Translations under genes and position numbers: made by a program
NCBI GenBank assembly: GCA_903821355.1
Contig: CAIJKW010000030.1
Location: forward strand, 27,897 to 91,896
Direction: 5' to 3'
Source: an uncultured bacterium
GTDB taxonomy: Bacteria > Patescibacteriota > Minisyncoccia > Phycocordibacterales > CAIZLB01
Length of the DNA: 64,000 nt
Shown here: positions 7,775 through 39,185 of the stretch, one piece after another
Numbering within the stretch: the first letter of the stretch is position 1
Layout of the letters: each line of letters begins with the position of its first letter
The notes under the pieces: model-generated
The model's database searches: none
What the model saw: only the letters and a program-made list of their open reading frames with translations
What the model was told of the DNA's origin: nothing

Positions 7775-7808
7775 TCTTTATTTAAGTGTAAATAATATGA
7801 GACGTGGA

Positions 7809-7844
7809 AAGGGCCGCCGGACGAACGTCCGGCGGCCCTTTTGA
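7809..7844 (+). terminator. Rho-independent terminator after gyrA
   Basis: aagggccgccggacg-aacg-tccggcggccctt followed by TTTT. Confidence 0.7.
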
Positions 7845-7873
7845 TATCACGCAATTTGTTTCTGGATCAGGCT

Positions 7874-8377
7874 TTAACTCAGGCACAAGCTGAGGAGGTG
7901 GTGATGTGTGTTGTCGAGATCGAGTTCCCAGTCATATTTGACCATCACTCCATACTCCCTACGCAGTCCATGTGGTCCATCATCAATCTCCGGTGCAAAG
8001 TGCATAAGAATTGTACCCAGGAGGGTGCTCGATTCGTCCGTGTTATTAATCACAATCACATATGCACCGTTCTCAGCGGCGGACATGCGTTCTTTGATTA
8101 AAGAAGTAACACTTTCTTTGGTGAGTCCACCTCCATTCAGTTGAGAGACAATCTCGATTTCAGCGCCAAGCCCGGTAGATAAGATTTTGGTAGTCAGCCT
8201 ATCGTCTTTTCTTCCGGCCAAGAGGTGAAGCGGCATATCTCTCTTCTTGGTTTTGATTCTCTTCGCAAGCCTTCTGGTCCTTTCGCATATTGATGATTTG
8301 TAAAGATCCCGTTCCGTTATGTCAGATTCTTCTGGATTGGGGGCGCAAACTATTCCGTAAATTCTGATTTGGCTCAT
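7874..8377 (-). CDS. hypothetical protein (GC-rich, possibly acquired)
   Basis: 167-aa ORF with noticeably higher GC than its neighbours. No motif recognised. Confidence 0.45.
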   Translation of the reverse strand: MSQIRIYGIVCAPNPEESDITERDLYKSSICERTRRLAKRIKTKKRDMPLHLLAGRKDDRLTTKILSTGLGAEIEIVSQLNGGGLTKESVTSLIKERMSAAENGAYVIVINNTDESSTLLGTILMHFAPEIDDGPHGLRREYGVMVKYDWELDLDNTHHHLLSLCLS

Positions 8378-8596
8378 CTTGTGAAAATCTAGGTAACCGC
8401 CTAGTCGGGTTCAGGTTCTGAAATACAATATCACAAAAGTTCTTTGTGTAAAGAATTCAGCTTTGGAGAATCGTCCAAACGAAGATTCTGGTGACGATTT
8501 AGCAAAATCGCCACGGGGCTCGCCTACCGGGCGGTTTTGGAGAATCGTCCAAACGACGATTTTGGAGAATCGCCTACCGGGTGATATAATATTTAC

Positions 8597-9130
8597 ATGA
8601 GTTTTGTTCAACCAAAAAAGACATTGCATGATATGAATATTGCAGAAGGTATGACTGTTGTGGATTTTGATGCGGGTGCTGGATACTATACGATGGCACT
8701 TGCAGAAAAAGTTGGTTCACATGGAAAAGTTTTTGCAATTGATACCCGCGGAGATTTACTAACTAGGATTGCAAATGAAGCAAAAATTCTTCATCATAAA
8801 AATGTGGAAGTCATGAGGGGAGACATTGAGTCTCCAAATGGTTCAGGTCTTTTGAATGAAAGTGTAGACAGGGTTGTGATTGCAAATACATTATTTGTTT
8901 GTGACTATCCAGAGCGGGCAGTTAAGGAATCGATAAGAATATTGAAAAATAAGGGCAAAATTGCCGTCATTGACTGGTTAGATTCCTTTAATCATTTTGG
9001 TCCACACCCAGATTGTATAATTCCTAAAGAACATATCATTGCATGGTTTGCTAAAGATGGCATGGCACTAGAAAAAGAATTTGATGCAGGGGAATACCAC
9101 TATGGCCTAGTGTTTAAATTTAAAGATTAA
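8597..9130 (+). CDS. class I SAM-dependent methyltransferase
   Basis: VVDFDAGAGYYT is SAM-binding motif I (GxGxG). 177 aa is a typical size. Confidence 0.65.
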   Translation: MSFVQPKKTLHDMNIAEGMTVVDFDAGAGYYTMALAEKVGSHGKVFAIDTRGDLLTRIANEAKILHHKNVEVMRGDIESPNGSGLLNESVDRVVIANTLFVCDYPERAVKESIRILKNKGKIAVIDWLDSFNHFGPHPDCIIPKEHIIAWFAKDGMALEKEFDAGEYHYGLVFKFKD

Positions 9131-9146
9131 GTTATAATATTTATAT

Positions 9147-10493
9147 ATGAATAAATCATCGAGTCCTTTTCAAATCATTCTCATCGGAGTATTTATTTTT
9201 GCCGCTGTCGTTGGAGTTATAATTTTTGCCGCTTACACAAACTCTTCAAATAATTCTGCGGTAAAGGCAACAGTTTGGGGAACGGAGTCAGAAGATGACT
9301 TTAAAAATCTGATGGCTATTGTTGATCCACAAAAAAAAGCAATGGATGTAGTTTACGTACAAAAAAATGTTGATACATTTGAGTCAGAATTTGTTAATGC
9401 GCTTGCAGAGGGAAATGGTCCAGATCTTGTTTTGATCGATGATTCAAAATTGTTTTCTTGGAAGAACAAATTGCAACCCCTTTCTTTTAAGACTTTACCA
9501 CAAAGGACCTTCGCTGACACTTTTATTGATTCTGCTAACACTTTCATGACAGCTGACGGTGTTTACGCTTTACCATTTAACGTTGATCCTCTGGTGATGT
9601 ATTGGAATAAGACGATGTTTAGCGATGCTGGCATAGTTTTACCTCCAAAAACTTGGCAAGAAATGACTTCGGAGATTCCTAAACTAACACAGAGGACAGA
9701 TAGATCTGAAATAATAAAATCTACCGTTGCTTTGGGTGAGTCTTCAAACATCGATCATTCAAAAGAGATTTTTATTAACCTGATGCTTCAAGGGGGAAAT
9801 AATTTAATTCAATTTGATCCAAATACAAGCAGATATGTTTCTACGGCAAACACAGCTTCTGCTTCCGGAGTCAATGTTTTTGAAGCTGCAACAAATTTCT
9901 ACACTTCATTTTCTAATCCAAACAATGAAAGATATTCATGGAATAAGTCTCTTGTAAGTTCAAGGGATGCATTTGTTGCAGGAAATTTAGCAATATATTT
10001 TGGATATGCTAGTGAATATCCAGTTCTACAACGCAAGAATCCTAATTTAAATTTTGATGTTGCGGTTATGCCACAAGATGCAGATAGATCCTCCGGAGTT
10101 CAAGCGACTTCTTATGCAAAAATAAATGCCTTAGCTTTAGTTAAGCAATCTAAAAATCAATCAGCTGCAGTTAGTATGATGACACAATTAGTTGCATCTG
10201 GTGCACAAAAAGAATTAATAAAAATTACCAATTTACCATCAGCAAGAAGAGATCTTCTTTCTATTTCCGATGTAACTAATGCCTATACTGATGTCTTTGC
10301 TAGGGCAGCTATTCAGTCAAAGACATGGACTGATCCTAATCCAACAGCCACAGATTCAATGTTTAGAGAGTTGATTGATAATATTACGACAGGTAAGGTT
10401 TCGGGTAGTGAGGCAAGGAATACGCTAAATCAAAAACTCGAAGTTCTTATTGCTGGAGCAAATCCAAATAGTGTGAATTCCACAGGCAATTAA
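9147..10493 (+). CDS. extracellular solute-binding protein family 1-like, N-terminally membrane-anchored, no cognate permease/ATPase nearby
   Basis: N-terminal TM segment. GNGPDLVLIDDSKLFSWKNKL and YALPFNVDPLVMYWNKTMFSDAGIVLPPKTWQEM resemble SBP_bac_1 signatures. Confidence 0.55.
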   Translation: MNKSSSPFQIILIGVFIFAAVVGVIIFAAYTNSSNNSAVKATVWGTESEDDFKNLMAIVDPQKKAMDVVYVQKNVDTFESEFVNALAEGNGPDLVLIDDSKLFSWKNKLQPLSFKTLPQRTFADTFIDSANTFMTADGVYALPFNVDPLVMYWNKTMFSDAGIVLPPKTWQEMTSEIPKLTQRTDRSEIIKSTVALGESSNIDHSKEIFINLMLQGGNNLIQFDPNTSRYVSTANTASASGVNVFEAATNFYTSFSNPNNERYSWNKSLVSSRDAFVAGNLAIYFGYASEYPVLQRKNPNLNFDVAVMPQDADRSSGVQATSYAKINALALVKQSKNQSAAVSMMTQLVASGAQKELIKITNLPSARRDLLSISDVTNAYTDVFARAAIQSKTWTDPNPTATDSMFRELIDNITTGKVSGSEARNTLNQKLEVLIAGANPNSVNSTGN

Positions 10494-10511
10494 AATATTT
10501 AGTGTGGTATA

Positions 10512-10991
10512 ATGAAATTAATAACTTATATGATTAAAAATATGAAAATAACAAGGAATAAAAAGTTTTCTATGTTATTAGTTGCATTTACTATATTTGC
10601 TTCATTCTTTACTTTTATATCCAGTACTTCTGCTGCTACTACTGCCAATACAGCCGGTACAAATCCAGTCTCGGCTGTTCTGTTGAGATGTACTCAATCT
10701 GGAGTCGCTTGTGGTTTTAATGATTTTATAAGTCTAATAAATGGCATGATTCAGTATGGAATTGAATTAATAGGGATAGCATTTGTTATTGCCTTACTCT
10801 ACGCAGGTTTCTTGTATTTGACTTCGGGTGGTGACCCTTCAAAAGTCAAAAAAGTTAGAGATGTTCTCTACAAGATCATGTGGGGTATGGTATATACACT
10901 TTGTGGTTGGGTTATTGTATACTTTATAATAAAGAGTTTAGGTGTTCCAGTATCTTTTTACAATGGTCAATACGGACTTTTAAACATATAA
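10512..10991 (+). CDS. small secreted two-TM membrane protein (paralog family member 1)
   Basis: Signal peptide, then core IGIAFVIALLYAGFLYLTSGGDPSKVKKVRDVLYKIMWGMVYTLCGWVIVYF (TM, short charged loop, TM). Confidence 0.5.
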   Translation: MKLITYMIKNMKITRNKKFSMLLVAFTIFASFFTFISSTSAATTANTAGTNPVSAVLLRCTQSGVACGFNDFISLINGMIQYGIELIGIAFVIALLYAGFLYLTSGGDPSKVKKVRDVLYKIMWGMVYTLCGWVIVYFIIKSLGVPVSFYNGQYGLLNI

Positions 10992-10993
10992 AC

Positions 10994-11443
10994 ATGAAAA
11001 AAATTAGATTTATTTTATTTACGATTGTCGGTGCGGTAGTTTTGTTGTATGCAAGTAGTGCCAGTATAGCAAATGCAGAATTGTCTCTTCCTTGGGAACA
11101 AAGTAACGTTAATGCGTCTGCTGCTATAACACCTGTGCCGGTGACAGCCGCCGGATCATGCGCAACTGGAAAGATTTGTAATCCATTGGGTACAACAACA
11201 ACACTTAATCAAGTGTTAACTATTGTCATATCTACAGTCCAAGTCATTGCCGGTATATTGTCTGTTGTCTATCTTATTTTAGCCGGACTTAAGTTTGTGC
11301 TTGCAGCCGGCGACCCAGGAAAAATAACAAAAGCCAGAGCAATGCTTTTGTATGTCGTCATCGGTATAGCAATAATATTTGGCGCACAAGCCATATCCTT
11401 GGTCGTTCAGAATACAATTAAACAGGTGGGTAGTGGGCAATAG
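10994..11443 (+). CDS. small secreted two-TM membrane protein (paralog 2)
   Basis: MKKIRFILFTIVGAVVLLYASSASIANA signal peptide. Core VIAGILSVVYLILAGLKFVLAAGDPGKITKARAMLLYVVIGIAIIFGAQAI. Confidence 0.5.
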   Translation: MKKIRFILFTIVGAVVLLYASSASIANAELSLPWEQSNVNASAAITPVPVTAAGSCATGKICNPLGTTTTLNQVLTIVISTVQVIAGILSVVYLILAGLKFVLAAGDPGKITKARAMLLYVVIGIAIIFGAQAISLVVQNTIKQVGSGQ

Positions 11444-11494
11444 TTAATTGGACGAAGGATTATTCGTAAAAATTAGAAAAATAATAAGAAAAAA

Positions 11495-11809
11495 ATGCCA
11501 GATATAAAAAATTCTTTATCAGCTCAGGTTAGTAATGTTACAGACCTTAGAAGCTTGGTGGCTAGTTTGATCGATATGATCAGATACTACATCGTGCCGT
11601 TTATTATAGCCCTAGCTCTGATGTTCTTCTTGTGGGGATTATTTAAAACGATAACAGCAGCTGGCGACGGTAAAAAGAGGCAAGAGGGTATGGCTTACAT
11701 AACATATGGAATCATCGGCCTTGCTGTGATGGTTTCTGTTTGGAGTTTGGTATATCTTTTAACCTCAACGTTCTTCTCTAACGGCTTATTAATCCCTCAA
11801 CTTAATTAG
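11495..11809 (+). CDS. small two-TM membrane protein (paralog 3)
   Basis: FIIALALMFFLWGLFKTITAAGDGKKRQEGMAYITYGIIGLAVMVSVWSLVYLLTS. Confidence 0.55.
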   Translation: MPDIKNSLSAQVSNVTDLRSLVASLIDMIRYYIVPFIIALALMFFLWGLFKTITAAGDGKKRQEGMAYITYGIIGLAVMVSVWSLVYLLTSTFFSNGLLIPQLN

Positions 11810-11843
11810 TTTTCTTAAATTTAATTTTTTAATATAAAATAAA

Positions 11844-12137
11844 ATGACAAATGGACTTAGAGGTTTGATACTTTATCTAAATAGATTTATAGGTGCGATA
11901 ACGGCCTTTATCATTTCCTTGACGCTAGTATTTTTTCTCTGGGGTGTATTTAAATTGATTTTTTCAAACAAAGACTCAAAAGAGAGAGAGCAAGCAAAAG
12001 GGTTTATTGTTTGGGGACTAGTTGCTTTGTTTGTTATGATCTCTGTTTGGGGGTTGGTGAATTTGTTAACCAGTTCTTTTGGTTTTGGTAACGTCAATCC
12101 CATGTCTCCACAATTTCCAAATTCGCGCCTTATATAG
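11844..12137 (+). CDS. small two-TM membrane protein (paralog 4)
   Basis: FIISLTLVFFLWGVFKLIFSNKDSKEREQAKGFIVWGLVALFVMISVWGLVNLLTS. Confidence 0.55.
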   Translation: MTNGLRGLILYLNRFIGAITAFIISLTLVFFLWGVFKLIFSNKDSKEREQAKGFIVWGLVALFVMISVWGLVNLLTSSFGFGNVNPMSPQFPNSRLI

Positions 12138-12274
12138 TAACTTGAGGACAATTTGATTTATAAATATGTTTATATCTCTGTTTATATCTTTTGAATATTA
12201 AGGTATAATAGCGATAAGTGACATTACTGTTGCTTACATAAATATAAGCTTATCATTTAATAAAAAATTTAATT

Positions 12275-12592
12275 ATGAATAATCAACCTGGAATTAGTGG
12301 ACTTTACGCTCTATTGGCTCAAGTCACAGATTTCGTTAATAGACTGATTCCTTTTATCATCGGTCTTACAGTTCTATTCTTCTTGTGGGGAATTTTTAAA
12401 CTAGTTTTCTCAGCAGATTCTGATGCAAGAGCAGAAGCTAGAGGATACATCATTTGGGGAATCATCGGTCTTGCTGTAATGGTTTCTGTTTGGGGATTAG
12501 TAAACCTTTTGACAAGTACATTCAGTCTGAACTCAAACGTTCCTCCACCACCTGGTATTCCATCAGCAGGTGGAACAATTCAATTGAGATAG
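12275..12592 (+). CDS. small two-TM membrane protein (paralog 5)
   Basis: FIIGLTVLFFLWGIFKLVFSADSDARAEARGYIIWGIIGLAVMVSVWGLVNLLTS. Confidence 0.55.
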   Translation: MNNQPGISGLYALLAQVTDFVNRLIPFIIGLTVLFFLWGIFKLVFSADSDARAEARGYIIWGIIGLAVMVSVWGLVNLLTSTFSLNSNVPPPPGIPSAGGTIQLR

Positions 12593-12639
12593 TGTGTCAG
12601 TTTTGAATAGGTTTTTACTCTTGAATAATAAAAATAATC

Positions 12640-12930
12640 ATGTCAAATGTACCACCCGCATTGGCTTCTCTTATAAAAGGGATAGATAGATATGTCATAA
12701 ACCCTCTAATTGTTCTGGCTTTTGCTATTGCTATGGTAGTTTTTCTCTGGGGCGTTTTCAATTATGTAAGAGGAGCGGGGGATCCAAAAGCAAGAGAAAC
12801 AGGCAGAAGTCATATACTATGGAGTCTTATCGGTATGGCAATAATGTTTTCTGTTTTTGGGTTAATGACGATTATCTCAAATACGGTTGGTGGTCCAACA
12901 GGTAATATTACAAATATTCAGAAGCTCTAG
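12640..12930 (+). CDS. small two-TM membrane protein (paralog 6)
   Basis: LIVLAFAIAMVVFLWGVFNYVRGAGDPKARETGRSHILWSLIGMAIMFSVFGLMTIIS. Confidence 0.55.
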   Translation: MSNVPPALASLIKGIDRYVINPLIVLAFAIAMVVFLWGVFNYVRGAGDPKARETGRSHILWSLIGMAIMFSVFGLMTIISNTVGGPTGNITNIQKL

Positions 12931-12960
12931 TAGGTTAGGAAGCAACACGTTATAAGATGA

Positions 12961-12991
12961 AAAGCGCGAAGGGTTGTCCTTCGCGCTTTTT
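12961..12991. terminator. Bidirectional rho-independent terminator closing the small-protein array
   Basis: aaagcgcgaagg-gttgt-ccttcgcgcttt with A-run upstream and T-run downstream. Confidence 0.7.
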
Positions 12992-13042: not shown

Positions 13043-13465
13043 TTAGGAGTTGTTGACGAAAGGTTTCTCGTCTGTCACTCCCGTGAGGTAATCCTGCCAA
13101 GCACATCTTTGAATGTATTTTGACCTTGCCCACGATTGAAATAGATGGTTTTTCTGATCGTCCGTTGTGCATTTCTCCAGTGCTTTTTGCATCGATGGGG
13201 AGATGGAGTCACCCTTTAGACTGTTATTGTAGTTTCTGCCCTCTTCTTTTGAGAGCTCAGACAATCTTCGAAAGAACCTGAGCAGATATTCAAGTGCGTC
13301 AATCTTTGCTATCCGTTTTTTTGAATAGTGTTTTGATTCTGCAAGGTATCGGTCAATAATACCTGACATCTGCCTTAGACTTATGGGTTTATTCTTTGGT
13401 AGTGTAAAACTTTGGATTCTCGATTTCATCTTGCTTTCTGGTGGAAAGAACAGGTGCCCGAACAC
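13043..13465 (-). CDS. hypothetical protein
   Basis: 140-aa ORF with slightly elevated GC. No motif recognised. Confidence 0.4.
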   Translation of the reverse strand: MFGHLFFPPESKMKSRIQSFTLPKNKPISLRQMSGIIDRYLAESKHYSKKRIAKIDALEYLLRFFRRLSELSKEEGRNYNNSLKGDSISPSMQKALEKCTTDDQKNHLFQSWARSKYIQRCAWQDYLTGVTDEKPFVNNS

Positions 13466-13587: not shown

Positions 13588-13594
13588 TCATGTG

Positions 13595-13676
13595 TGGGCG
13601 AGGAGGGACTCGAACCCTCAATCCTTACGGAACTAGTTCCTAAGACTAGCGCGTATACCAATTCCGCCACTCGCCC
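13595..13676 (-). tRNA. tRNA-Leu (anticodon UAG)
   Basis: Reverse complement GGGCGAG…CTCGCCCA forms a cloverleaf with anticodon loop CTTAGGA, a long variable arm and T-loop GGTTCGAGTCC. Confidence 0.8.
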
Positions 13677-13791
13677 ATATTTTGACTTTGCTTTATATCA
13701 GCTTTTTGGTTTGCTGAAATTTAAGAATTCAATATCTATATGAAGTTTAAGATTCTGGCTTAAATGTCTTCATAGAGTTATCGAACTCTTG

Positions 13792-13864
13792 TCCGCCCGG
13801 TAGGATTCGAACCTACGACCGTTCACTTAAGAGGCGACTGCTCTACCAACTGAGCTACGGGCGG
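13792..13864 (-). tRNA. tRNA-Lys (anticodon CUU)
   Basis: Reverse complement CCGCCCGTAGCTCAGTTGGTAGAGCAGTCGCCTCTTAAGTGAACGGTCGTAGGTTCGAATCCTACCGGGCGGA. Anticodon loop CTCTTAA. The top pair of the anticodon stem is non-Watson-Crick (G·A). Confidence 0.7.
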
Positions 13865-13926
13865 ATATGTTCATTATAGTAGCAAAAAAAGGTATTTAAT
13901 ACAACTATTTACGATCATGTTTGTAA

Positions 13927-14241
13927 CTATAATTCTAAGAAGATTATTGAGCAAATTCCTAGAACCATACCGACAATTTGAAGCGGGCTTAATCCTTCGT
14001 GAAAGAATACGTAACTTACCAGCAGTAATGTAGCGACGTTAAATATAACAAATATTATTGAAGCGATAGCTATGTTTTTGTATTTGAAACTAAAAGATAG
14101 AAATATTAAGGCTATTACATAAATTATTAATCCAATGACAAAAAACCAAGTGTTATTTTTTGAAACCCATTCTTTCATAAAAATATCCCCAGCTGTTAGA
14201 ACTAAACCTCCCGCTAAAACTAAGATTATCCCAGTATTCAT
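13927..14241 (-). CDS. small multidrug-resistance/DMT-like 4-TM membrane protein
   Basis: 104 aa with four hydrophobic helices (SMR/EamA-half-like topology), embedded between tRNA genes. Confidence 0.45.
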   Translation of the reverse strand: MNTGIILVLAGGLVLTAGDIFMKEWVSKNNTWFFVIGLIIYVIALIFLSFSFKYKNIAIASIIFVIFNVATLLLVSYVFFHEGLSPLQIVGMVLGICSIIFLEL

Positions 14242-14249
14242 TTTATTGG

Positions 14250-14332
14250 TGCTCAGGGCGGGACTCGAACCCGCACAGGCTTTCGCCTACAACATTTTAA
14301 GTGTTGCGTGTCTACCATTCCACCACCCGAGC
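14250..14332 (-). tRNA. tRNA-Leu (anticodon UAA)
   Basis: Reverse complement GCTCGGGTGGTGGAATGGTAGACACGCAACACTTAAAATGTTG… Anticodon loop CTTAAAA, long variable arm, T-loop GGTTCGAGTCC. Confidence 0.8.
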
Positions 14333-14800
14333 TTTTTTATTTAAGCCTCTATGAGTTGGCTGTAAACTGTGACAATTTGGACAAAGTATCTGTAGGTTAG
14401 TTAGTCTATTGTCTCTACTATCACCGTTTATGTGATCTAACTCAAGAGGTAATCTACCATCTTTTGTGGTTTTGTTCCACCCGCACATCTCACACTTTTT
14501 TTCCTTTAAACCATCTTTAAATAATCTTTTCTTAAGTTTATAACTTTGAAATGAGCTGCCTTTTACTAAAATTTCTTTAGTTGGAATAAGTGGTATTTTA
14601 TTTTAAAATTTTTTGCCCTTACTCCAACCTCTGCCTGTAAAATGTTTTATGGATAGGCCGTATTCTAAAACATATTTCTTGATTTGAGAATAGTTTCCAC
14701 CAGCTTCAACTAATCCAAGTCTTTTCAAAACTTGTCTATAGCTTGTGGAATCAGCAACTGATTTTATTAAATTGTCTTTTGACCACTTTCTTTTTCTCAT
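14312..14800 (-). pseudogene. HNH endonuclease gene interrupted by a single in-frame TAA (plus 14603-14605); C-terminal part overlaps tRNA-Leu(UAA)
   Basis: Upstream ORF 14606..14800 (MRKRKW…SKGKKF*) is in the same frame as a downstream reading frame. That frame encodes …CEMCGWNKTTKDGRLPLELDHINGDSRDNRLTNLQILCPNCHS…, a canonical HNH motif. Confidence 0.6.
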
Positions 14801-14841
14801 TTAAGAATAACAAACAAATATGTAAAAACTACTTTTACATG

Positions 14842-14914
14842 AGGCGTAGGCCGGGATCGAACCGGCGTATAACGATTTTGCAGATCGCCGCGTTAACCAC
14901 TTCGCCACTACGCC
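14842..14914 (-). tRNA. tRNA-Cys (anticodon GCA)
   Basis: Reverse complement GGCGTAGTGGCGAAGTGGTTAACGCGGCGATCTGCAAAATCGTT…GGTTCGATCCCGGCCTACGCC. Anticodon loop CTGCAAA. Confidence 0.8.
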
Positions 14915-32631: not shown

Positions 32632-33852
32632 TTATTCATACTTCAGCGCATCTATTGGATTCAACCCTGCTGCACGCCTTGCGGGATAGTATCCAAAGAC
32701 GATGCCGATGACCGCTGAAACCGTGAAGGAGAGGATAATAGAAAACCACGAGACCTGCGTTGCAATTAATCCAAAATAATTTATTAAGAACGATATTAGC
32801 CAACCCAAAATTATTCCAATTCCTCCACCAATAAATGTTAGCATCAGTGCTTCAATCAAGAATTGCAAACTGATATCTTTGTTTCTTGCGCCAATCGCTT
32901 TTCTTAAACCTATTTCACGAGTTCTCTCTGTCACTGTTGTAAGCATCATATTCATAATTCCAATTCCACCAACCACAAGTGAAATTCCTGCAACGGAACC
33001 AAGCAAAATCGTAAAAATTTGTGTAATACTTGTTGCGGTTGCGGCAATGTCTGCTTGATTGAGTACGCTAAAATCTAGCACGCCATTTTTGATATTATGT
33101 TTTGTGGTTAAAATATCTGTAATTTGAGCTTGAATACCTGCGCTAGAATTTGAGTCTGGAGCTTGCACGCTGATTGTCGTCACATATTCATCGCCAGACA
33201 GTAGTCTTTGTGCAGTTGAGAGTGGCATCCAAATTAAATCGTCCTGACTACCAAAACCGGATCCTCCTTTTGCAACTGTCATTCCGATGACAGTAAAATC
33301 CACCTTATTAATTCTAATTTTTTTACCAATCGCATCAACGTCTACGCCAAAAAGATCATCTCTTACGTTTGGCCCAATTACAGCAACCTTACTTCCAGCC
33401 TGTAAATTTTGATCTGTGATAAAGGTACCTTCTGCGATGGATACATTTCTGACCGATTGATAATCTGGCACGGTACCTGTAATTGTTGTGTTTGTGTTTT
33501 GTCCTTGAGCTGTTACTTGATAACGTCCAGAAACTTCAGGGGCGATTGCTTTAATATTTGTGGCCTGCTGTTGAATTGCAGTGACGTCTTCAAGTGTTAA
33601 TGTTTTTGCACTTCCTCTTCCGGCGCTAATTTGAACTCCAGGACCACGTTGTGCTCCAGGAGTAATCAAAATCAAGTTCGAACCGATAGATTGAATACTT
33701 GATTGAATAGAATTCTGCGCCCCTTGTCCAATTGAAAGCATGGCGATAACAGAGCTTATTCCAATCACAATTCCAAGCATCGTTAAACCTGAACGCACTT
33801 TGTTTGCGAAGATTGCTGAATATGTTTCGTGTAGTATGTCAAATATTGTCAT
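32632..33852 (-). CDS. ABC transporter permease, MacB/FtsX-like
   Basis: N-terminal TM, large extracytoplasmic MacB_PCD-like domain, and C-terminal FtsX 3-TM bundle. Confidence 0.8.
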   Translation of the reverse strand: MTIFDILHETYSAIFANKVRSGLTMLGIVIGISSVIAMLSIGQGAQNSIQSSIQSIGSNLILITPGAQRGPGVQISAGRGSAKTLTLEDVTAIQQQATNIKAIAPEVSGRYQVTAQGQNTNTTITGTVPDYQSVRNVSIAEGTFITDQNLQAGSKVAVIGPNVRDDLFGVDVDAIGKKIRINKVDFTVIGMTVAKGGSGFGSQDDLIWMPLSTAQRLLSGDEYVTTISVQAPDSNSSAGIQAQITDILTTKHNIKNGVLDFSVLNQADIAATATSITQIFTILLGSVAGISLVVGGIGIMNMMLTTVTERTREIGLRKAIGARNKDISLQFLIEALMLTFIGGGIGIILGWLISFLINYFGLIATQVSWFSIILSFTVSAVIGIVFGYYPARRAAGLNPIDALKYE

Positions 33853-33896
33853 ATGTTTTTATTTTGTTATAGCGATTTTTCGTCTTCGCCATTTAT

Positions 33897-34631
33897 TTAT
33901 TGTTTTAACGAATTTATCTTTGCAAGCTCCAAAACGGCATCTTTCTTCTTGTGATTTTTTCTGTCTTCTGTAATTTTTCCATCTCTAATAACAATTATTC
34001 TGTCTGCGTGTTCTGCAACGTCTGGCTCGTGGGTAATTAAAATAATTGTTCTACCTAATTCTTTATTTAACTTTTGAAACGTCCCCAAAACAATTTCTCC
34101 AGTTTTGCTGTCTAAGTTTCCGGTTGGTTCATCGGCCAAAATTAAACTTGGATTGTTTACGAGCGCGCGAGAAATTGCTACACGTTGAATTTGACCACCA
34201 GAAAGTTGATTGGATAGGTGAGTGAAGTGGGTTTCATCTAATCCTGATGCATGTAGAGCTTCTCTTGCCCGCCTGTCTCTTTCTTCTTCGCCAACACCTG
34301 AATAAATAAGGGGGAGCATTACGTTTCTAAGAACTGTGCTTCTGGGTAGTAGGTTGAACGATTGAAAGACAAAGCCAATTTTATCTCTCCTTATATCTGC
34401 CAGCTCGTCATCCGTTAGGGAAGAGACATCCTTGCCGTCCAAAAAGTATGTTCCTGTTGTTGGAGTGTCTAAGGCACCTAGAATATGCATCAGAGTTGAT
34501 TTACCAGATCCAGATGGACCCATGATGGCAACAAACTCGCCGTCTTCAATTTTAAAGCTAACACCATCAAGCGCAAGAAATGCGTTGGCGTCCGGGTCAT
34601 ATATTTTTGTAATGTTTTTTACGTCAATCAT
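33897..34631 (-). CDS. ABC transporter ATP-binding protein (MacB/LolD-type)
   Basis: Walker A GPSGSGKST, signature LSGGQIQR, Walker B LILADEPT. Confidence 0.85.
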   Translation of the reverse strand: MIDVKNITKIYDPDANAFLALDGVSFKIEDGEFVAIMGPSGSGKSTLMHILGALDTPTTGTYFLDGKDVSSLTDDELADIRRDKIGFVFQSFNLLPRSTVLRNVMLPLIYSGVGEEERDRRAREALHASGLDETHFTHLSNQLSGGQIQRVAISRALVNNPSLILADEPTGNLDSKTGEIVLGTFQKLNKELGRTIILITHEPDVAEHADRIIVIRDGKITEDRKNHKKKDAVLELAKINSLKQ

Positions 34632-34701
34632 GTTTTTAGGTTTTTATAGGTCAAGAAACAGTTTTTGAATATTTGTGTGATCAACACTACGATCCCAATT
34701 G

Positions 34702-36477
34702 CTATCTGCCGGCCGGTGCGCCACCACCTGTCCTTATAATACTACTTCCAGTTGAACCACTTCTATTTCCACCTGAACCAAACAGACTTGGCGCCGCCGC
34801 TGTCTTTGCAGCGGTCGCGCTTGCTGTTGATGTTTTGGTAACGATTCTATCGCCAACATTTAAACCAGAAACAATTTCTGTTGAAGTGTCATTAGATAGT
34901 CCAACCGTTATTTCTTGTTGCACCGGAGTTTCATTAACGACAACTGGTGTAGTTGAAGTTGCAACATTTGCGCTAAATACTTCAACATATTGAACACCAT
35001 TTTTTATTTTTACCGCACCATTTGGGATAACAATCACATCCTGTTTGTTGTTTGTGATTACAGAAGCGCTAACGCTCATGCCGGATTTGACTCTATCGTC
35101 CTGAACATCAAAAGTAATTTTTACATTATAATTTACGACACCTTGTGTAACAGTTCCAATCAAGTCAATTGATTGAACAACGCCGGAAATATTTAGGCCA
35201 TCAATAGCATCAAATGTGAGCGACGCCTTTTGCCCAGCGGATATCTTAGCAGCATCAACTTCATTCACTGTTATATCAGCCACTTTATTTTTTGTGATAA
35301 TTGTTCCAATAGAGCCACCGGAAGAAACCGTATCAGACGGCTTGGCTGTTATTTGCGCAATTACACCATCAAATGGAGCTGTAATAAATATATTTTGATA
35401 TGCCAATTGCGCTTGAGCAAGATTTATTTTTTGAGACGCGACATCAAGGCTGTCTGCCCCAGTTGTAATTTTATCCAGGCTCGCTTGTTTTTGCGCAAGT
35501 GTTTGAGGACCATTTTGAATAGTATTTTTTAGATCAGAAATATTATTCATCGAGCTTGATAGGCTGGATAAGTCTGAGTTAATTTTTCCAATCCAACTCG
35601 TCAAGTTGCTTGATGCTGTGTTTGCAGCGGCGCTTGCTGATGAGCTGGGTGTGCTATTAGGATCTGTGTTCTTTACATAATCCACTGTATTTTTTAATTC
35701 AACTAATACACTAGAAAGTTGCTTTGATACGTCGTAAGTTTTTTTAATTAATGAATCGGCTGAGCTTGTGGAGTCTAATCTTGACGAGCTTCTATAAGTT
35801 TGCAACACATTATTGTATGCGCTTTTTGCCTTATCGAAATTTATTCCATTGCTATTCTTTTGATTTTTTGTTTCGTTAGATCTTCCTATAAGATTTTGGT
35901 CTGACAAAAAACCAGTGCCAGAATATAACATATCATTTGATCCGTTTATGATATCTGACAAATCTATGTATGTTGAGGCAATAGAACTGTAGGCTGTGTC
36001 GTACGCACTACTTAAATCATCCGCCGATTTTGTCAGGCTTTGCTTTGTACTATTAAAATCATTTTGCGCTTGAATCAAAGTTGATTGATCTGCTGGCTGA
36101 ACAAGTTTTTGATAAGCAATTTGTGCACTTTGTAAATCCAAATACGCCCCTGGATTATCTATTTGTGCGATAACTTGCCCCGCCTTAACCTCTTGTCCCG
36201 TAGTCACATTTATTTTCAAAATATTTCCAGAAGATTTTGCTTTTAGATCAATTTGATTTGAAGCTGAAACTTGGCCACTTCCTGTGACATTGGTGACGAT
36301 TGCGCCTTTTTGAACATCAGCAATGGCATAAGTTGTAATGGTGCTTGCTGGAAAAAGAACTTTGTATAACTCATAGATTATCAAAATCAAAATAATAGCC
36401 ACCGCTATGCTAGTTTTCTTATGCTTTATTACGTATTGCTTAAATTTTGGATAATTATTTTTCATATTTGTTTTCAA
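34702..36477 (-). CDS. HlyD/MacA-family periplasmic adaptor (membrane-fusion protein), unusually long at 591 aa
   Basis: N-terminal TM and biotinyl-lipoyl-like segments (VTGSGQVSASNQIDLKAKSSGNILKINVTTGQEVKAGQVIAQID; ITAKPSDTV…) flanking a long coiled-coil/low-complexity insert. Confidence 0.6.
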   Translation of the reverse strand: MKTNMKNNYPKFKQYVIKHKKTSIAVAIILILIIYELYKVLFPASTITTYAIADVQKGAIVTNVTGSGQVSASNQIDLKAKSSGNILKINVTTGQEVKAGQVIAQIDNPGAYLDLQSAQIAYQKLVQPADQSTLIQAQNDFNSTKQSLTKSADDLSSAYDTAYSSIASTYIDLSDIINGSNDMLYSGTGFLSDQNLIGRSNETKNQKNSNGINFDKAKSAYNNVLQTYRSSSRLDSTSSADSLIKKTYDVSKQLSSVLVELKNTVDYVKNTDPNSTPSSSASAAANTASSNLTSWIGKINSDLSSLSSSMNNISDLKNTIQNGPQTLAQKQASLDKITTGADSLDVASQKINLAQAQLAYQNIFITAPFDGVIAQITAKPSDTVSSGGSIGTIITKNKVADITVNEVDAAKISAGQKASLTFDAIDGLNISGVVQSIDLIGTVTQGVVNYNVKITFDVQDDRVKSGMSVSASVITNNKQDVIVIPNGAVKIKNGVQYVEVFSANVATSTTPVVVNETPVQQEITVGLSNDTSTEIVSGLNVGDRIVTKTSTASATAAKTAAAPSLFGSGGNRSGSTGSSIIRTGGGAPAGR

Positions 36478-37564: not shown

Positions 37565-38128
37565 CTATAATATTCCCCTTAATTTTTTCAACGATCTTCC
37601 ATATTGGCTCTTAACAGTATTCATCGGCCTATCTATGATTTCCGCTATCTCTTCAAAAGTTAAATCTTCACTAATATGCAGGTGAATTATAAGTCTTTGA
37701 TTATCAGATAATTGAGCAAGAGCTTTCTTTAGGTTTTCTTCAGATTCTTTTTGCAAAAATACTTCATCAGGCAATGGTTCTTTGTCTACCAGGCTTGCTT
37801 CGAAATCAAAATTTTCTTCATCGCTTTCAGTGTCCAAGCTGGAAAAATTTATAGACTTTTTCTTTCTCAACTTATCTATTGCTGTATTTCTAGCGATGCT
37901 GAATAGCCAGGTTTTAAAATTTAAATCTGTATCAAATTTTGATAACTTCTGCCAAGCTTTTATAAATGTTTCTTGAGTAATATCCTCCGAGTCATCTTTG
38001 TTTCCAACCAACCTGAAAATAAAAAAATATACTGACTTTGCATGACGCTCTACAAGTACATTAAATGAAGCCCTACCTTGTGTGAGGTAAATAGATTCTT
38101 CAATTAATTGTAGATCTGTTTTTTCCAT
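37565..38128 (-). CDS. ECF-type RNA polymerase sigma-70 family factor
   Basis: Region 2 (FIFRLVGNKDDSEDITQETFIKAWQKL) and region 4 (LTFEEIAEIIDRPMNTVKSQYGRSLKKL). The start is taken at MEKTD; the track ORF extends to 38179 and would overlap miaA. Confidence 0.75.
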   Translation of the reverse strand: MEKTDLQLIEESIYLTQGRASFNVLVERHAKSVYFFIFRLVGNKDDSEDITQETFIKAWQKLSKFDTDLNFKTWLFSIARNTAIDKLRKKKSINFSSLDTESDEENFDFEASLVDKEPLPDEVFLQKESEENLKKALAQLSDNQRLIIHLHISEDLTFEEIAEIIDRPMNTVKSQYGRSLKKLRGIL

Positions 38129-39185
38129 TATTTTTTCGACTGAGTATTTTGTCACCTTTGTCCTTTTTGTTTTTGCCAACTAGATTCTTGCCGGTCGCGT
38201 CTTCATTACCTATAAACTTTTTGACTATATTTTCAATCTTCTTAAAGTTTGCGGGGGATGGCTTAAACCATACAATCCCTTGCCTTCTTTTGAACCAAGT
38301 TCTTTGTCTTTTAACAAAATGCCAAATGTCGTTTGCAAGCATTTGTTCAAATTCCTCCTTTGAAATTTTACCCTCAAGAACACTCGCCATATGGCCATAT
38401 TCTAGGCCAAGCTCATGCATTCTTTTATATTTTAAACCATTTTCATGTAATTTACGACCCTCAGCCAACATTCCTTTTTTCATCCTCGATCTTATTCGCA
38501 AAAGTATTCTTTCCTTGATGGTTTTATCGTCAAAATCTAAACCAATAAAAACAGCCTCAAAGTTTGCTTTGTTTATAAGAGGTGGAACTCTGCCAATTTT
38601 TGTAGCAATCTCAATTGACCTAATGAGTCTTACTCTGTTGAATTGACCGCCACCATCGTTCTTAAGTTGGTTGGCTCTATTTTGATCTAGAGACATTAAT
38701 TTTTTATAAAGATTTTCTGTAGTAACTGTGGATAACTCCTTACGTAATTTTTTATCAGGCAAAACTTGTGGAAATTGAATTCCATCGACAAGAGCATCAA
38801 TATACATTCCAGTTCCACCGCAAATTATTGGAATTTTATTTTTCTTTATGATTTCCTGCGCTACCTTTAACGCGTCCTTACTAAACTTATCCGCAGTATA
38901 AGTTTTTTTAGGATCTGCAATGTCCAACATAAAATGGGGTACACCCCGCATTTCTTTTTTCGTTATTTTACCAGAGCCAAGATCAAGACCTTTATAGACC
39001 TGTCTAGAATCAGCAGATATAATTTCACCTCCAAACTTCTTAGCAATCAAAACTGCCAAATCACTTTTACCCGTTGCTGTCGGACCACAAATTACAACAA
39101 CCTTTTTCAGTTTTTCCGAGCTTTTTTGGTGCTCTTTCTTTGTGTTTTGCTCCTTCACATCGTCCATCTTTTTAGCCTTTTCCAT
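38100..39185 (-). CDS. miaA: tRNA dimethylallyltransferase
   Basis: VVVICGPTATGKSDLAVLIAKKFGGEIISADSRQVYKGLDLGSGKIT is P-loop plus MiaA signature. Lys-rich N- and C-terminal extensions. Confidence 0.8.
   Translation of the reverse strand: MEKAKKMDDVKEQNTKKEHQKSSEKLKKVVVICGPTATGKSDLAVLIAKKFGGEIISADSRQVYKGLDLGSGKITKKEMRGVPHFMLDIADPKKTYTADKFSKDALKVAQEIIKKNKIPIICGGTGMYIDALVDGIQFPQVLPDKKLRKELSTVTTENLYKKLMSLDQNRANQLKNDGGGQFNRVRLIRSIEIATKIGRVPPLINKANFEAVFIGLDFDDKTIKERILLRIRSRMKKGMLAEGRKLHENGLKYKRMHELGLEYGHMASVLEGKISKEEFEQMLANDIWHFVKRQRTWFKRRQGIVWFKPSPANFKKIENIVKKFIGNEDATGKNLVGKNKKDKGDKILSRKNNGKNRSTIN

Follow-up and report, generated by a model that had tools for sequence, protein, structure and literature searches.

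Tandem arrays of VirB2-like pilin genes are known from Patescibacteria. When 3,035 Patescibacteria genomes were searched with PF04956 and PF18895, VirB4 was found in 2,417 assemblies and VirB2-like pilins in 1,948 assemblies also carrying VirB4, a pilin gene being near virB4 in only 1,135 (Quinonero-Coronel et al. 2025, PMC12102498). The same survey counts 441 arrays, each of 2-11 pilin genes, in which identity averages 25% and does not exceed 54%; Paceibacteria are among its most represented classes. Another such array is described here from contig CAIJKW010000030.1 of a Paceibacteria-type Patescibacterium, where its six genes occupy 10512-12930 on the plus strand of the window (the whole 64-kb stretch that was analysed; positions are in window numbering, and gene calls are from an open reading frame (ORF) listing with translations). 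With the genes for an S-adenosylmethionine (SAM)-dependent methyltransferase (MTase) and a solute-binding protein (SBP) that precede it, the array makes up a chromosomal operon of eight co-directional genes, in which several pilin types follow one another in a set order. The block is conserved in relatives, and no type IV secretion system (T4SS) ATPase is encoded nearby. The array probably supplies subunits for a surface filament or channel of a chromosomal T4SS, with the SBP as a coupled receptor; it is synteny that points to this coupling of the SBP to a pilin structure.

The survey counts as an array 2-11 PF18895/PF04956 genes in tandem or one non-pilin gene apart, with low mutual identity. 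The window array, with six consecutive genes at 23-52% identity, is a typical member of this class by number, size and divergence. The closest described systems are the VirB2-like arrays of Southlakia epibionticum ML1 (SEML1_0006-0019) and TM7x (PMC12102498), which are likewise chromosomal tandem sets of divergent two-helix proteins assigned to PF18895/PF04956 in monoderm hosts with reduced genomes. The ML1 array also has six members (PMC12857230). Unlike the ML1-type arrays, the window array lies outside any nearby T4SS cluster, behind the SBP and MTase genes and next to gyrA, and its genes are arranged in the order A-B-Cn-D (four orthogroups, C being present in several copies). S. epibionticum cannot grow epibiotically without the pilin series of its T4SS cluster (Wang et al. 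2023, PMC10633639), and it has been speculated that the pilus is a conduit for uptake from the host (PMC12857230). Genes for proteins with a T4SS pilin domain rank among the signal-peptide genes with the highest expression in Paceibacteria that parasitise methanogens (Kuroda et al. 2024, PMC10936435).

The array is less novel than the initial annotation of this stretch assumed, because earlier work has described the family as well as its tandem occurrence in Patescibacteria (PMC12102498, PMC10633639, PMC12857230). The conserved MTase-SBP-array block, the fixed A-B-Cn-D order and the conserved membrane anchor of the SBP were not found in the literature searched, which is no proof that they are undescribed. 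The supplements of PMC12102498 contain no SBP, gyrA or PF01547 entries.

Family membership of the six small proteins

Six consecutive plus-strand genes for proteins of 96-159 aa, each with a helix-loop-helix architecture, had been annotated, and all six are present as described. In each protein a Kyte-Doolittle scan finds two hydrophobic helices with a short charged loop between them, and the loop peptides quoted in the annotation are present in the translations. Pairwise identity is 35-52% among genes 3-6, and 23-40% between genes 1-2 and the rest. Profile-profile probabilities among the four classes A-D are 98.1-99.9%. Judged by these comparisons the six small proteins are true paralogues, as had been proposed.

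The best family match is Pfam PF18895 (T4SS_pilin). Genes 2-6 score 29.4, 36.3, 33.2, 38.3 and 30.3 bits, all above its gathering cut-off of 26.6 bits. Gene 1 remains sub-threshold at 17.8 bits, and its membership is seen at the profile level, where class A matches the other classes at 98.2-99.5% (hhalign) and class C among them at 98.7%. Gene 2 also matches TrbC/VirB2 (PF04956) with 26.2 bits and an E-value of 9.5e-6, just below the cut-off of 27.9 bits; this Pfam model gives no match for the other genes, and no gene reaches its cut-off. In NCBIfam, the best match of all six proteins is NF045849, the Mbov_0395 pilin-like conjugal transfer protein of mycoplasma integrative and conjugative elements (ICEs). 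The scores are 23.4-36.4 bits (curated cut-off 40 bits, so all are sub-threshold), and the alignments span nearly the full 80-residue model. On these profile matches, the six genes encode members of the VirB2/TrbC-like T4SS_pilin family. The resemblance to conjugative pilins noted in the initial annotation therefore stands, and the family reached by the hidden Markov model (HMM) searches is one concerned with secretion and pili, not an unrelated one. Some members, orthogroup A among them, do not reach the Pfam threshold, and precomputed gene tables mark such proteins '-' or 'weak'. Counts that rely on a single HMM therefore probably miss some of the arrays of Paceibacteria.

Homologue searches yield more than 4,200 and more than 5,300 proteins, all carrying PF18895 and several named 'pilin' by NCBI. 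Nomurabacteria, Paceibacterota and further Patescibacteria are their sources. In an exhaustive profile search, 61,942 cluster representatives match at E<=1e-3. In many members of the family, one polypeptide holds from 2 to 16 pilin domains in tandem, or 4 to 32 transmembrane (TM) helices, joined by short linkers, and some of the fused repeats are preceded by Cys-containing segments. Examples are P0366 (1775 aa), P0385, P0392, P0364, P0367, P0007 and P0011; the loci listed for this observation are L087:10001-10576, L088:10001-10795 and L089:10001-10738 and the fourth array gene of L024 and L033. Such poly-pilin fusions are rare in SBP-linked arrays (2 of 402 ORFs), and they are not mentioned in the pilin survey PMC12102498.

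The AlphaFold2 (AF2) model of gene 5 is a helical hairpin with helices at residues 7-45 and 49-82 and a 3-residue turn (pLDDT 78). Fold searches with this monomer model give no specific structural match, the fold being too simple to discriminate. Nor are solved pilins matched when a profile of the six genes is searched against all PDB chains, where designed helical proteins or noise are the only matches. In VirB2 and TraA, the N- and C-termini are outside and the loop is in the cytoplasm. The loops of the window proteins are rich in Lys and Arg, which under the positive-inside rule would place them in the cytoplasm and the two termini outside. We infer an N-out/C-out topology as in VirB2 and TraA.

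The proteins of genes 1 and 2 begin with a further hydrophobic segment, after which come Ala-rich AxA-type sites (SSTSA/A and ANA/E). These leader-like N-termini, recognised in the Kyte-Doolittle scan, are consistent with signal peptides, which the initial annotation had assigned to these two genes. Genes 3-6 have no leader-like N-terminus in the same scan. The array compares in two directions with the TrbC/VirB2 pilins of diderm T4SSs (A. tumefaciens VirB2, RP4 TrbC, F TraA). Small size, two helices, a short basic loop and the predicted topology are shared, and the leader-like N-termini of genes 1 and 2 may be a further resemblance. Unlike the diderm pilins, the window genes have no adjacent VirB machinery, belong to a monoderm host, form differentiated paralogues and in four of six cases have no leader. 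The monoderm two-TM pilin-like proteins of MPF-FATA systems (NF045849, Mbov_0395/ICE_MMCAP2_0565; PrgF-type) supply the best NCBIfam match, and the VirB4 clade of Patescibacteria has its origin in the MPF-FATA class of T4SSs (PMC12102498). Known NF045849 members, unlike the window genes, lie inside ICE conjugation modules, and they are not known to form pili.

A bacteriocin/immunity array had also been offered as an explanation, and holin-like proteins are another small membrane protein to consider. Small size and two-TM topology are all that speaks for either. The genes adjoining the array include none for bacteriocins, lysins, an ABC-peptidase exporter or phage functions. No family match points to a bacteriocin or holin, and Pfam places the array proteins in the T4SS pilin family. 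The locus is also a core one that has kept its synteny across deeply diverged relatives. This explanation is effectively refuted.

Order and conservation of the block

GTDB species representatives were scanned with an SBP alignment, which gives 385 confirmed relatives. The best 80 loci were kept, and HMMs made from the genes of the window were run on the ORFs called in them. In 77 loci with 402 pilin ORFs, class assignment and reciprocal best hits resolve the array into four orthogroups in the fixed order A-B-C(2-5 copies)-D, where A is gene 1, B is gene 2, C is genes 3-5 and D is gene 6. A takes the first position in 59 of the 75 other loci and B the second in 60. D falls at position 5, 6 or 7, the final slot of the commonest layouts, in 52 of the 75. 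The layout of the window, ABCCCD, is the commonest (21 loci), followed by ABCCD (19) and ABCCCCD (4).

Each class has its own motifs. The extracytoplasmic part of class A is marked by a Pro and by a Cys pair that at least 90% of 63 orthologues retain. NPL precedes helix 1 in class B, and F.WG and WGIIG..VMVSVWGL are found in classes C and D. The paralogues map to conserved positional orthogroups, which rules out a recent tandem duplication. The orthologue assignments thus identify the four classes as ancient orthogroups rather than products of a recent amplification. In relatives, the pilin classes are 29-39% identical to those of the window and the SBP is 35-45% identical. As pilin divergence is similar to SBP divergence, the pilins are not hypervariable. 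The fixed order and the per-class motifs fit differentiated subunits of one assembly, not a fast-evolving repertoire of variants.

This bears on the idea that the array serves antigenic or host-range variation through interchangeable, fast-diversifying major pilins, as proposed for the VirB2 arrays of Bartonella and Anaplasma. The effector T4SSs of those bacteria have several VirB2-like paralogues side by side, as the window has; unlike the window array with its conserved ordered orthogroups, they are thought to be variable surface antigens. The idea has been raised for Patescibacteria (PMC12102498), and it agrees with the low identity within the array (23-52%) and with a C copy number that varies from 2 to 5. 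Against this, four old orthogroups keep the same order, and their class-specific motifs, across species with SBPs only 35-45% identical, and per-class divergence is no greater than that of the SBP. Antigenic variation is very improbable as the role of this array.

The SBP and MTase genes belong to the conserved arrangement. SBP homologues at 80% and at 43-44% identity have the same order, gyrA - MTase - SBP - pilins ... rbfA - infB. At least three same-strand pilin ORFs directly follow the SBP gene in 62 of 63 Paceibacteria-type loci with at least 3.5 kb downstream, with a median SBP-to-pilin gap of 4 bp and, most commonly, 5-6 pilin genes per locus. The MTase gene is directly upstream of the SBP gene in 68 of 72 related loci. 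The flanks are also recurrent: gyrA lies within 2.5 kb upstream in 53 of 62 loci, and rbfA-infB recurs downstream. The block is kept where gyrA is not adjacent (L014, L051, L057), where an IS200-type transposase has landed next to the block (L087, L089), and across distances to rbfA-infB of 4.8 kb to more than 10 kb. The MTase-SBP-array block is more cohesive than its flanks. The initial annotation had asked whether the SBP and the array are syntenic in relatives, and they are, strongly so.

The sole exception is L038:9469-13284, from a Campbellbacteria-labelled metagenome-assembled genome (MAG) of a dolphin oral sample. Here the MTase-SBP pair is kept and no pilins are adjacent. A 660-aa protein follows the SBP, and one pilin-like ORF is found 4.6 kb upstream among ribosomal protein genes. 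Three long-contig pilins taken from the top of the homologue list all map to the locus type of the window, although this choice favours orthologues, since the query profile was made from the window locus. Note that many MAGs with Paceibacteria-type synteny (L008, L009, L012 and others) are labelled 'uncultured Candidatus Saccharibacteria bacterium'. This label looks generic and is not evidence for the block in Saccharimonadia.

T4SS genes are consistently missing from these surroundings. In the window, VirB4, VirD4, VirB6 and CUT1 permease or ATPase genes are all absent from 33 scanned ORFs of at least 135 aa outside the array. The scan includes every non-nested ORF of at least 184 aa except IF-2 and the overlapping alternative-frame ORF 37565-38179; eleven smaller ORFs of 120-168 aa lie outside it. 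The absence of a VirB4/VirD4 ATPase from the window had been recorded in the initial annotation and holds for these 33 ORFs. No T4SS ATPase family and no VirB6 is found within 10 kb in the gene tables of six related locus types, and no T4SS gene is among the families listed for 32 representative large flank ORFs from about 80 loci (top 25 of 50). A CUT1 permease or ATPase is likewise not found in the six gene tables. An HMM derived from the locus finds no further pilin ORF in the whole 64 kb.

Binding protein, methyltransferase and surrounding window

A co-directional SAM methyltransferase and a membrane-anchored family 1 SBP had been annotated upstream of the small genes, and Pfam, profile and AF2 results agree with this. 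The SBP itself is too divergent for a Pfam match, while its homologues carry PF01547/PF13416. Its profile matches 471 SBP sequences in the PDB, the best being the mannobiose-binding protein 4r9f (4.7e-16). The AF2 model (pLDDT 89.6, pTM 0.85) consists of an N-terminal TM helix and a MalE-type bilobed body, for which Foldseek finds oligosaccharide and sugar SBPs in the PDB at E-values of 8.6e-23 to 1e-19 and TM-scores of 0.6-0.8. Many aromatic, and also charged, positions are conserved among the homologues.

Tethering to the membrane is usual for SBPs of monoderms. In 48 homologues below 60% identity, mean column conservation is 0.67 in the TM anchor and 0.62 in the globular part. Within the anchor segment (residues 1-35, window 9147-9250), five of 23 anchor positions (F8, F16, G23, F27 and A28) are at least 90% conserved. 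For an anchor that only tethers, conservation equal to that of the globular domain is unusual; the SBP may make a specific contact with a partner within the membrane. The SBP has the fold of the MalE-type CUT1 SBPs of carbohydrate ABC importers. It differs from them in having no MalF/MalG/MalK-type partners in the window or in the relatives inspected, a conserved TM anchor, and a pilin operon as near-obligate partner. The initial description of this SBP as an orphan is thus half right: no permease or ATPase is nearby, but the protein is a near-obligate neighbour of the array.

The MTase has no TM segment, only generic sub-threshold NCBIfam matches, and as closest PDB sequences the uncharacterised structural-genomics MTases 3dh0 and 3i9f. 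It is a minimal class I enzyme with generic relatives only.

These results have to be set against an explanation in which the genes share no function. The pilins would serve a T4SS, the SBP would serve an ABC importer encoded elsewhere, the MTase would be a housekeeping enzyme, and their adjacency would be the frozen gene order around gyrA in reduced genomes. The recurrence of gyrA upstream and of rbfA-infB downstream agrees with this, and so do the normal, confidently modelled MalE fold of the SBP with its many conserved aromatics, the generic MTase, and the L038 locus, where the MTase-SBP pair is kept without adjacent pilins. A frozen order does not readily account for the cohesion of the block, which outlasts loss of gyrA adjacency, IS insertion and a variable distance to rbfA-infB, nor for the 4-bp median gap between SBP and pilin genes. 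There is also no permease or ATPase in any inspected gene table, and the SBP anchor is unusually conserved. An absence of shared function is rather unlikely, yet of the rivals to a T4SS filament or channel with the SBP as receptor it is the strongest.

The features of the locus are collected in Table 1. Gaps along the MTase gene, the SBP gene and the six pilin genes are, in order, 16, 18, 2, 51, 34, 137 and 47 bp. Such short spacing, with a single strong terminator at the end, supports an operon. For gene 2, the ATG at 10994 is taken as the start; a longer ORF beginning with GTG at 10880 would overlap gene 1 and need not be invoked. A protein 100% identical to pilin gene 5 exists in public data (P0242).

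Table 1. Positions of the genes and signals of the MTase-SBP-pilin locus
Feature	Position	Strand	Description
Promoter-like site	8563-8590	+	TGGAGA-16 nt-TATAAT, TG-extended -10; ends 7 nt before the MTase ATG; 10/12 positions match
Class I SAM-dependent methyltransferase	8597-9130	+	177 aa, cytoplasmic; first gene of the conserved block; Pfam Methyltransf_31/11/25
Membrane-anchored MalE-like (family 1/CUT1-type) SBP	9147-10493	+	448 aa; one N-terminal TM helix, residues 7-29
Pilin paralogue 1, orthogroup A	10512-10991	+	159 aa; signal-peptide-like N-terminus, extracytoplasmic segment with conserved Cys pair, then two-helix pilin domain
Pilin paralogue 2, orthogroup B	10994-11443	+	149 aa; putative signal peptide; conserved NPL motif before helix 1; most TrbC-like of the six
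Pilin paralogue 3, orthogroup C, copy 1/3	11495-11809	+	104 aa; without signal peptide; 50-52% identity to genes 4 and 5
Pilin paralogue 4, orthogroup C, copy 2/3	11844-12137	+	97 aa
Pilin paralogue 5, orthogroup C, copy 3/3	12275-12592	+	105 aa; C copy nearest to the class consensus
Pilin paralogue 6, orthogroup D	12640-12930	+	96 aa; typically the last gene of the array
Intrinsic terminator hairpin	12959-12991	+	14-bp stem, then T run; closes the array

The terminator hairpin is strong (-23.2 kcal/mol, z = -4.72), and none of 200 shuffled sequences is equally stable. It was annotated as bidirectional. That it closes the array is borne out, whereas for the opposite strand the A run and T run on its two sides indicate that weak action may also be possible. 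A simple consensus pattern scan does not list this hairpin, and the promoter and terminator pattern matches of that scan are at shuffle expectation. The region has 17 promoter-like sites against 17.9 expected from shuffling, so the site before the MTase gene is a weak lead, no better than chance. If used, its -10-like hexamer, ending 7 nt before the MTase ATG (8585-8599), would give a transcript with little or no leader. In the 25 nt upstream of each of the eight genes, no obvious Shine-Dalgarno sequence is seen.

The spacer between gyrA and the MTase gene is a variable slot (window 7775-8596; L001:7476-9277; L087:6434-7060; L089:6191-6817). In the window it holds a minus-strand orphan ORF (7874-8377, 167 aa) with no family match in Pfam, NCBIfam or PHROG. 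The close relative L001 has three spacer ORFs, and the one compared is unrelated to that of the window. Relatives of the Nomurabacteria type have an IS200-type Y1 transposase in this spacer, and L087 also has a second methyltransferase copy. On the other side, a 140-aa minus-strand orphan ORF (13043-13465) converges on the array terminator. It has no Pfam, NCBIfam or PHROG match and no counterpart in about 80 related loci, and it may not be a real gene.

The remaining window is housekeeping in content, with GyrA, IF-2, ClpB, TopA, DprA, SerRS, TGT, UvrABC, ParB and seven tRNAs. Within the minus-strand tRNA cluster Leu, Lys, Leu, Cys (13594-14914) there is an HNH endonuclease in two pieces, a C-terminal one at 14312-14488 (-) and an N-terminal one at 14603-14800 (-), which match phrog_10822 at E-values of 5e-18 and 3e-15. 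The pieces are apparently a decayed homing endonuclease. The only ABC transporter of the window is a MacB-type tripartite exporter at 32632-36477 (-), with a MacB_PCD/FtsX permease, an ABC ATPase (33897-34631) and an HlyD-like adaptor. It is not a partner type for a family 1 SBP.

Possible role of the array

If the array supplies a T4SS filament or channel, the pilins would insert in the cytoplasmic membrane with their termini outside and the short, mostly basic loop inside, A and B after signal-peptide cleavage, and would form a membrane pool of four VirB2-like subunit kinds. An MPF-FATA-related T4SS encoded elsewhere on the chromosome would draw on this pool to build a heteromeric surface filament or channel at the site of host contact. 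A, B and D would be single-copy specialised subunits (minor, initiating or capping), and C would be the amplifiable major subunit. The SBP, on its conserved TM helix, might act as a receptor for glycans or oligosaccharides, either in host recognition or in the capture of host-derived molecules. The MTase might modify a component or a ligand; modification of a pilin would be a loose analogy with the N-terminal modification of other pilins. The roles of the SBP and MTase are speculative.

Four points weigh against such a T4SS structure. A pilus has yet to be observed for a T4SS of Patescibacteria, and the MPF-FATA systems of monoderms normally do without pili (PMC12102498). T4SS machinery is missing from the window, the six related gene tables and the listed flank ORFs, so that for this genome dependence on a T4SS is an assumption. 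The wider gyrA ... rbfA-infB region is also syntenic, and part of the SBP/MTase linkage may therefore reflect the general conservation of gene order in reduced genomes. Finally, fusions of 2-16 pilin domains are hard to reconcile with a classical extruded VirB2 filament.

Some of the same observations would fit an autonomous system that works without a T4SS. The VirB2-like hairpins would form a hetero-oligomeric membrane channel or platform on which the TM-anchored SBP docks, giving a new uptake or sensing device. The array is never beside T4SS genes in about 80 loci and is almost always linked to the SBP, whose TM helix is conserved; fusions of up to 16 domains suggest lateral packing in the membrane; and the 5-7 domains of an array amount to 10-14 TM helices, a permease-like size. 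On the other hand, the block encodes no ATPase or other energising component, and the fusions are rare in SBP-linked arrays. A variable copy number is atypical of a permease with fixed stoichiometry, and there is no precedent for such a system. Moreover, pilins of this kind form part of the T4SS cluster in Saccharibacteria, where pilins and cluster are jointly essential (PMC10633639). An autonomous device is improbable.

A more specific proposal combines capture with a conduit. The SBP would dock through its TM helix on a heteromeric pilin filament or channel, either T4SS-driven or autonomous, with the MTase as part of the module, and the binding of host glycans would be coupled to the uptake structure. 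As a description of the locus this is tentative and, on present evidence, unlikely. A T4SS-dependent structure with the SBP as receptor is the reading we prefer.

The T4SS and its pilin array are essential in the only genetically tractable Patescibacterium, and the idea of the pilus as a conduit has no known specificity partner. An SBP that is nearly always co-encoded with an ordered pilin set would provide a concrete handle on this idea of a host-uptake conduit. The fixed A-B-Cn-D order argues for a heteromeric structure with specialised subunits over antigenic variation, and this changes which experiments are sensible. If the linkage is mere synteny, the locus is another member of the known class of pilin arrays. 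If the SBP does capture molecules for the conduit, the block would represent a binding-protein-dependent pilus or channel system without described precedent, in which substrate recognition is tied to the suspected uptake route of these auxotrophic epibionts.

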